From Candidatus Woesearchaeota archaeon (lineage in GTDB: Archaea; Nanobdellota; Nanobdellia; Woesearchaeales; WAPY01): a stretch of DNA of 64,000 nucleotides. The notes beneath the pieces are model-generated. The model had not been told where the DNA came from, made no database searches, and worked only from the letters and a program-made list of their open reading frames with translations. Below, in pieces: positions 57,291 through 58,801 of this stretch. The stretch lies in contig JBNAUL010000002.1 in NCBI GenBank assembly GCA_049700835.1, positions 153,967-217,966 of the forward strand. Direction: 5' to 3'. The position numbers were made by a program, and so were the translations under genes. Each line of letters opens with the position of its first letter. The stretch's first letter is position 1.

Positions 57291-58801
57291 AGGAGGTGAT
57301 CCAGCCGCAGGTTCCCCTACGGCTACCTTGTGGCGACTTAACCCTTCTCACAAAGCCCAGATTCGAAATACCCTTTTTAAGAGTAACCCTCGTCTAGACT
57401 CTGCTCGAATGGTTTGACGGGCGGTGAGTGCAAGGAGCAGGGACATATTCATCAGATTATGCTAAAACCTGATTACTAGGGATTCCAACTTCATGAGGTT
57501 GGGTTACAAACCTCAATCTGTACTAAGATAGGGTTTTGAGGATTAGCTTCCCCTTTCGGGGTTGCAGCCCATTGTCCCTACCATTGTTGCGCGCGTGTAG
57601 CCCAGGGCATTCGGGGCATACTGACCTACCGTAGCCTGCACCTTCCTCTCCGTTTCCGGAGCAGTTCCTATAATGTGCCCGCTCAACATGCGTTGGCAAT
57701 TATAGGTACAGGTCTCGCTCGTTGCCTGACTTAACAGGACATCTCACGACACGAGCTGACGACGGCCATGCACCACCTCTTAGCCTGTCAGGTAAGCCCT
57801 TCAGACTGACCTTCATCCTGCTGTCGGTCCTGGTGAGATTCCCGGTGTTGAGTTCAATTGAACCGCACGCCGCACCCCTTGTAGTGCTCCCCCGCCTATT
57901 CCTTTAAGTTTCAGCCTTGCGACCGTACTCCCCAAGCGGCGAGTTTAACATCTTCATTACGACACTGCGCATTCCCGAAGAATACGCAACACCTAACTCG
58001 CAGAGTTTACTGCTAGGACTACCCGGGTATCTAATCCGGTTCGCTCCCCTAGCTTTCGTCCCTCACCGTCAGACCTGTTCTAGTAAGACGCCTTCGCCAC
58101 TGGTGGTCCTTCTGGGATTATAGCATTTTACCGCTCCCCCAGAAATACCTCTTACTCCTCCCAGTCTCTAGTCTTGCAGTGTCTCATGCACACCATTAGG
58201 TTAGGCCTAATGATTTCACAGGAGATTTACAAGACCGGCTACGGACGCTTTAGGCTCAATAATCGTGATCACCACTTGTGGCGCCGGTGTTACCGCGGCG
58301 GCTGGCACTGGTCTTGCCCACCACTTATTCGCTAAGATTTTTACTCTTAGCAAAAGCCTTCTCTTTGAGAAGGCACTTGGGGTTGCCTTGTCACGCTTTC
58401 GCGCATTGCAAAGGTTTCGTGCCTGCTGCACTCCGTAGAGCTAGGGCCAGTGTCTCAGTGCCCTTCTCGGGGCGCCCTCTTCCAAGGCCCCTACCGATCT
58501 TTGGTTTGGTGGTCTTATAAAGCGCTAAGCCTTTTAATTGACAAAAGCTTTTGCGCTACGTTACACCACCAACAGCCTAATCGGCCGCCGGCTCATCCTT
58601 AGGCGCTAACGCTTTAAGAAAGAAATCATTCCAGAAATTCTTTCCTATCAGGTATTATCCTCAGTTTCCCGAGGTTATCCCTGACCTAAGGGTAGATTAC
58701 CGACGTGTTACTGAGCAGTTCGCCAGCTCTTTGCAGAGCTTGGACTTGCATGGCTAATCCCAACCCCAATAGCGGCAATCTCCCGCAGGATCAACGGGTA
58801 T
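57291..58801 (-). rRNA. rrs: 16S rRNA (ends approximate), intron-containing
   Basis: 5' CCCGTTGATCCTGCGGGAG, GTGCCAGCCGCCGCGGTAA, intact anti-SD ATCACCTCCT; flanking inverted repeat 57252-57269 / 58868-58885. Confidence 0.97.
58515..58558 (-). other. 44-nt BHB intron in 16S rRNA helix 11 (about E. coli 265/266)
   Basis: Exon stem GGUGGU/ACCACC, central helix GUAA/UUAU, bulges CGU and AAG, outer stem AGCGC/GCGCU; removal restores GGUGGUGUAACGGACCACC. Confidence 0.85.

Follow-up and report, generated by a model that had tools for sequence, protein, structure and literature searches.

A putative 44-nt bulge-helix-bulge intron between positions 265 and 266 (E. coli numbering) of the 16S rRNA gene of a Woesearchaeota archaeon

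The rRNA operon and its host genome

The DNA analyzed here, referred to as the window, is a stretch of 64,000 nucleotides from a Woesearchaeota genome (G000) of 1.07 Mb, which is assembled in four contigs and is 98.7% complete. Rfam finds a single rRNA operon in the window. It lies on the minus strand, with the 16S rRNA gene at 58801..57291 and the 23S rRNA gene at 57009..54090. The 16S gene, the only one found in the genome, matches the Rfam family SSU_rRNA_archaea with 1448.9 bits over model positions 1-1478. It is host to an insertion of 44 nt (58515..58558, minus strand), and Rfam shows nothing comparable in the accompanying 23S gene. When the whole operon was aligned by MAFFT with the operons of three intron-free relatives, 58558-58515 was the sole window-specific insertion of at least 15 nt, the remaining window-only insertions relative to these three being 13 and 10 nt. 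No further introns were found in the operon; a loose scan for the bulge-helix-bulge (BHB) motif gave 11 matches against a shuffle mean of 12, which is noise.

Other features of the operon were also recorded. The 16S-23S spacer contains a tRNA-Ala(UGC)-like element of 58 nt (57177-57234, minus strand; Rfam, 33.9 bits). Its acceptor, D, and anticodon arms fit the model, 3 nt replace 18 model positions of the T-arm, and aragorn made no call at this position. The element may be a tRNA-like processing signal rather than a working tRNA. The 16S leader and trailer form a perfect 18-bp duplex, AGAAGUGAGUAAAAAGGU / ACCUUUUUACUCACUUCU, at approximately 58866-58886 and 57250-57270 (minus strand), which is likely a processing stem; one duplex fold of this stem revealed no clear BHB. 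Further upstream, about 575 nt (about 59025-59600) separate the rRNA leader from the next gene (59600-60598, minus strand), and these are missing from a relative that is 98% alike (L032).

Anatomy of the insertion

In the Rfam alignment of the 16S gene, 45 nt stand against one model position in a hairpin loop (...GUAAcG-c...), and GUAA belongs to the loop that is conserved in the mature rRNA. We take the hairpin bearing the insertion to be helix 11 of 16S rRNA. In the annotated 1542-nt 16S gene of E. coli, GTAACG corresponds to positions 260-265 and the next G to 266, and the insertion site is thus 265/266. The original prediction had placed the site at about this position, and the numbering proved exact. 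Its coordinates and length (58515..58558, 44 nt) were likewise borne out to the base by both the Rfam gap and the operon alignment.

Read in RNA sense (58558 to 58515), the insertion consists of a U, the strands AGCGC...GCGCU around a second hairpin, then UUAU and AA. All elements described here are on the minus strand. The 5' exon half of the motif (58559..58572) comprises UUGGUGGU (58572-58565), GUAA (58564-58561), and the bulge bases CG (58560-58559), and the 3' exon half (58506..58514) comprises the third base of the other bulge (G, 58514) followed by ACCACCAA (58513-58506). UUGGUGGU and ACCACCAA form an exon-exon outer stem of 8 bp (h). The central helix of 4 bp is formed by GUAA and UUAU (58520-58517) through G-U, U-A, A-U, and A-U pairs. 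It is bordered by a 5' bulge of 3 nt, CGU (58560-58558), in which the exon-intron boundary falls after CG, and by a 3' bulge of 3 nt, AAG (58516-58514), in which it falls after AA. The inner stem of 5 bp (h') is internal to the intron and pairs AGCGC (58557-58553) with GCGCU (58525-58521), with 27 nt of intron interior between them. On each strand of the motif, read 5' to 3', the 4 nt of the central helix are followed by the 3-nt bulge, with GUAA being exonic and UUAU intronic.

This RNA-sense reading reproduces the strict BHB anatomy that had been predicted for the outer stem, the GUAA/UUAU helix, the bulges CGU and AAG, and the AGCGC/GCGCU stem. The characteristic features of the hBHBh' class are present, namely 3-nt bulges on both strands with 4 bp between them, helices flanking both sides, and restoration of the mature sequence. 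Exactly 44 nt (58558..58515) lie between cuts made after the second base of both bulges. The predicted restoration of the loop also held, as the excision product, GGUGGUGUAACGGACCACC, is the same as the Rfam consensus loop and the sequence found in intron-free relatives. The insertion had been described as lacking an open reading frame, and at 44 nt it is indeed too short for any gene.

Folding with ViennaRNA gave -29.0 kcal/mol for the unconstrained structure, in which the A/U-rich central helix was mostly open. The BHB-constrained fold had an energy of -26.8 kcal/mol, so formation of the central helix costs 2.2 kcal/mol.

The motif was also compared to chance expectation with a strict scanner (four of four central pairs, an outer stem of at least 6, an inner stem of at least 5, and a length of 12-60). 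Over the 4.9-kb operon, the intron at 58515-58558 was the one match, compared to 34 matches over 500 operon shuffles. Genome-wide, there were 164 matches against 62 in a single shuffled genome, and the genome is AT-rich. By itself, the BHB motif is not specific genome-wide and proves little. What goes beyond chance is its coincidence with the alignment gap and its conservation among relatives.

Splicing machinery and tRNA introns

Genome G000 encodes one EndA of 212 aa, which contains N-terminal and catalytic domains (PF02778 and PF01974), and a second endonuclease-domain gene was not found in this genome. A single one-unit EndA would fit the homotetramer type. Homotetramer-type EndA requires a strict BHB motif, and the 16S intron presents one. 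RtcB is encoded by one open frame of 478 aa.

With introns allowed, aragorn called 40 tRNA genes in G000, of which about a dozen were assigned introns. The window contains two of the intron-bearing genes on the minus strand, a tRNA-Ile(GAT) gene with a 28-nt intron (16419-16521) and a tRNA-Tyr(GTA) gene with a 56-nt intron (31460-31588); both were missed by a default ARAGORN run. Outside the window, a gene at C2:309877-309996 (minus strand) was called by aragorn as tRNA-Stop(tta) with a 47-nt intron, and the scanner located a strict BHB motif in it at 309912-309958. Its assignment as a suppressor looks like an artefact, since by our reading the spliced anticodon loop would be CUUUGGA, which would make it tRNA-Gln(UUG).

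A search of G000 for further copies of the 16S intron body returned none, only chance matches of at most 13 nt. Nothing therefore points to such a dispersed repeat family in this genome.

Same-site insertions in relatives

Genomic analysis was extended to a sample of 201 genomes from the same order. This part of the 16S gene was matched in 134 of them, G000 included, leaving 133 relatives. An insertion at the same site was found in 14 of the 133, all read in sequence. Among the others, sixteen plus six were read in sequence and are intron-free, two were cut by contig ends, and the remainder were judged intron-free from match length only. Genes without the insertion are always continuous exactly at the predicted junction, and close relatives lack exactly these 44 nt.

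A pattern scan with the exon flanks, which left a free gap of 22-52 nt and kept one genome per species, yielded 42 loci. In 39 of these, all four central pairs are in the expected register with 3-nt bulges. The other three have three central pairs and one non-pair, due to an extra base on the 3' strand (L045 and L052) or an A-A mismatch (L077). None of the 42 scanned loci was found to have an insertion of comparable size at 265/266 that lacks the BHB motif.

Covariation was then assessed in 45 distinct same-site sequences of 29-49 nt from other archaeal genomes, one of which is unpublished. Within the central helix, 176 of 180 cells are paired, and the partner of the exonic G is U in 18 sequences and C in 27. 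Inner-stem positions 1-4 each show four to six pair types, indicating compensatory substitutions. Over all cells, 386 of 450 (86%) are paired, and shifting the partner by 1-2 positions lowers this to 38-52%. All 45 sequences begin the 3' bulge with A.

A close comparison is provided by a genome of the same genus (G392), whose exons are 99% alike to those of the window (4 of 316 positions differ). Its intron is 49 nt long and only 72% alike (36/50). Moreover, its inner stem is AGCGU/ACGCU in place of AGCGC/GCGCU, which is a compensatory change. In an independent DNA run (X1), the insertion of the window is spanned by a single 625-nt contig whose sole difference is 58555 G>A (plus strand). By our reading, this variant turns a C-G pair of the inner stem into a U-G pair.

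RNA evidence

It had been predicted that mature RNA would be joined across 58514/58559. This junction was found in three RNA assemblies, from runs X5 and X7 of one study and X6 of another. In each, one contig joins 58514 to 58559 unambiguously, with depths of 1942, 659, and 205 (X5, X7, and X6, respectively) and sides of 122-194 nt. These contigs are 98-99% alike to the window and come from relatives, one lineage of which lacks the insertion in a contig that is probably genomic DNA. The expectation was therefore upheld as to the junction itself, and not as to its origin in this organism. The junction is the predicted splice junction, yet it is also that of an intron-free gene. At 95% likeness, no RNA contigs in the three runs cover the 44 nt; since these runs derive from relatives and rare variants are lost in contigs, this zero depth carries no weight.

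The probably intron-free lineage was recognized through a metagenome contig (L032), the one record recovered when metagenome contigs were scanned for the 3' exon. Its 16S gene is 98.2% alike to that of the window and is without the 44 nt. The contig remains colinear with the window across the spacer and leader and breaks off inside the adjacent protein gene (93 aa, 78% identity), so it is probably genomic DNA. All 13 variants seen in the X6 contig recur in L032, which makes X6 uninformative on splicing. The X5 and X7 contigs could likewise come from an intron-free relative. They share variants at 58616, 58625, and 58653 with the intron-bearing G392 but not its fourth difference at 58502, and their other three variants lie past the end of the G392 contig. 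Taken together, the RNA data agree with splicing and lend it mild support.

Interpretation and alternative explanations

It is very probable that 58515..58558 is a small archaeal BHB intron without an open reading frame, which interrupts the 16S rRNA gene at E. coli 265/266. The intron reading of the original prediction gains support from 45 same-site insertions that keep the BHB, from relatives that lack exactly the 44 nt, and from the presence of genes for EndA and RtcB. In the proposed mechanism, the host hairpin would contribute half of the recognition motif (the stem, the loop GUAA, and two bulge bases), and the intron would complete it with one bulge base, a hairpin, UUAU, and AA. The tRNA-splicing endonuclease EndA would cut past the second base of both 3-nt bulges, and joining of the exons by RtcB would restore the conserved loop GUAACGG. 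RtcB would probably circularise the intron as well. What is observed is the anatomy, its covarying conservation in relatives, intron-free alleles with an identical junction, and the enzyme genes. Cleavage and ligation in this organism are inferred, as the RNA evidence derives from relatives, one lineage of which is probably intron-free.

The insertion might instead be an expansion segment that extends the hairpin and is kept in mature 16S rRNA. A hairpin loop is a place where extensions are structurally easy, the interior of the insertion folds into a stable hairpin, and the joined RNA forms may derive from intron-free relatives. A helix would be enough for an expansion segment, which has no need of two 3-nt bulges exactly 4 bp apart. 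This geometry recurs in 39 of the 42 insertions that were found independently, and 176 of the 180 central cells are paired even as length (29-49 nt) and interior vary freely; no motif-less insertion of such size was found at the site. The patchiness of the insertion even inside genera, with absences exact to the predicted junction, also speaks against retention, which we regard as improbable. Slightly less probable again is excision without religation, whereby EndA would remove the 44 nt and the 16S rRNA would work as two fragments, as with bacterial intervening sequences. The sequence itself shows a cleavage signal only, and ligation is deduced from the presence of RtcB. Against two fragments are the high depth of the joined form in RNA assemblies of close relatives and the need of the intron-bearing tRNA genes for the encoded RtcB. 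Ligation of archaeal rRNA BHB introns by RtcB is, in addition, stated in the available part of Jay and Inskeep (2015; PMC4496867).

An artefact of assembly or binning, with the real gene being without an insertion, has next to no probability. It is already refuted by the uninterrupted contig from X1, which differs at one position, and by the diverged same-site copy in G392. A spliced BHB intron thus remains the favoured reading of the 44 nt.

Distribution and possible transfer

Presence of the intron differs within the genus of the window, G392 having it and the equally close L032 being without it. In genus g34, the insertion is present in G155 and absent from G032, and in genus g93 it is present in G092 and absent from G183 (an unpublished genome), as judged by match length. 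The 16S sample for a tree consisted of the window, the 30 best matches to an intron-holding query, and L032 and L043, a choice which inflates the share of intron-bearing rows. Six of 32 rows (L017, L019, L026, L027, L028, and L043) were dropped for being shorter than 900 nt, and the tree had 26 rows. The intron label requires 9 changes on this tree, compared to a mean of 9.0 for shuffled labels; 15 of 23 inner branches are unresolved, and the well-supported branches force only 2 changes. This distribution fits repeated gain, loss, and possibly transfer.

By eye, the intron bodies form visible sequence families. Single-linkage clustering at 60% identity chained 39 of the 45 introns and gave no usable partition. 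Individual pairs were compared with their flanking 16S sequence (about 200 nt per side). The introns of L052 and L078 are identical at 44 of 49 positions (90%), with flanks at 72%. Similarly, introns are 86% identical between L061 and L065 (flanks 70%), 83% between L051 and L061 (flanks 62%), and 81% between L075 and L078 (flanks 71%). Under vertical descent, intron distance would be expected to scale with host distance, and the pair comparison suggests otherwise. Strong sequence constraint on some of the introns is an alternative to transfer.

Four loci have outlying exon flanks, with median identities of 0.60-0.69 against 0.77-0.80 for the rest. Their titles name Micrarchaeota (L075), Bilamarchaeaceae, Borrarchaeum (L056, Asgard), and, doubtfully, Methanosarcinales. 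The assignment of L051, L056, L075, L078, and L083 to other phyla rests on record titles together with outlying exon identity. The intron body of the Borrarchaeum locus, which is also at 265/266, resembles none of the others.

From these comparisons, it can tentatively be proposed that the 265/266 loop is a hot spot, occupied by a family of protein-less mini-introns which may move horizontally between distant archaea, though the odds are somewhat against this. With half of the motif already provided by the host hairpin, any inserted hairpin would become spliceable at this site if UUAY and AN came after it. Without a homing endonuclease, spread would need another route, either recombination via the conserved flanking sequence or reverse splicing and subsequent reverse transcription.

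Insertions at other sites were also seen among these relatives. In L089 (G025:C1:762100-767700), the 23S gene has an insertion of 300 nt at 3888-4187, absent from the window and two other relatives, which is probably another rRNA intron. The 16S genes of L009, L010, L012, and L013 are still 1602-1770 nt long after removal of the 265/266 intron, and probably hold further insertions elsewhere.

The intron has practical consequences as well. An intron of 44 nt in the 5' part of the 16S gene lengthens the gene and breaks alignments there, and gene-based and RNA-based surveys of these archaea would consequently give different sequences. The few 16S sites with BHB introns gain a further locus, and small hairpin introns, described from hot-spring Thermoproteota, are now also seen in DPANN-type genomes. 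One site harbours a population of at least 45 distinct introns, in which presence varies within genera and intron similarity is untied from host similarity. This patchy, host-uncoupled distribution is the main lead from the analysis. If the pattern reflects transfer, 265/266 could serve for studying how protein-less archaeal introns spread.

Comparison with known systems

Archaeal pre-tRNAs contain hBHBh' introns at position 37/38, in which the 5' strand of the 4-bp helix belongs to the 5' exon and cleavage follows the second bulge base on each strand. The 16S intron has the same geometry and cut positions, and the strict motif is also found in the organism's own C2 tRNA gene. It differs in that the host RNA is an rRNA and in that the intron body has no similar genomic copy.

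The kind of element is known, namely the small hairpin BHB intron of 16S rRNA, and the locus was not found in print. In the available part of Jay and Inskeep (2015; PMC4496867), 13 archaeal 16S loci are given (374, 548, 722, 781, 803, 901, 908, 919, 978, 1093, 1205, 1213, and 1391). The original prediction had not placed 265/266 among described positions, and it is indeed absent from these 13. Full-text searches of the main text of open-access papers also found no report of an intron at 265/266; the one paper in which "helix 11" and "intron" both occur concerned bacterial chimeras. Group I introns have been described in rRNA genes of Woesearchaeota and other DPANN archaea, with BHB introns noted, and the portion of that paper available makes no mention of the 265/266 site (Nawrocki et al., 2018; PMC6125680).

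The closest known class is termed 'HP', small (<50 nt) hairpin BHB introns in the 16S genes of Thermoproteales, Desulfurococcales, and Aigarchaeota (PMC4496867, in the part available). As described there, they share with the 265/266 intron a length below 50 nt, the absence of an open reading frame, a hairpin with a BHB at the exon-intron junctions, and location in a conserved part of the 16S gene. In both, cutting by the tRNA-splicing endonuclease and joining by RtcB are presumed. Three differences stand out. None of the 13 loci is near 265, the host here is a Woesearchaeota genome of 1.07 Mb rather than Thermoproteota, and the exon hairpin at 265/266 itself supplies the entire exon half of the motif. 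The rRNA introns of Crenarchaeota that encode homing endonucleases (LAGLIDADG; PMC4496867, in the part available) have the splicing signal and the kind of host gene in common with the 265/266 intron. Unlike them, the 44 nt are too short to encode a protein, and any mobility of this intron must therefore take another route than a homing endonuclease.
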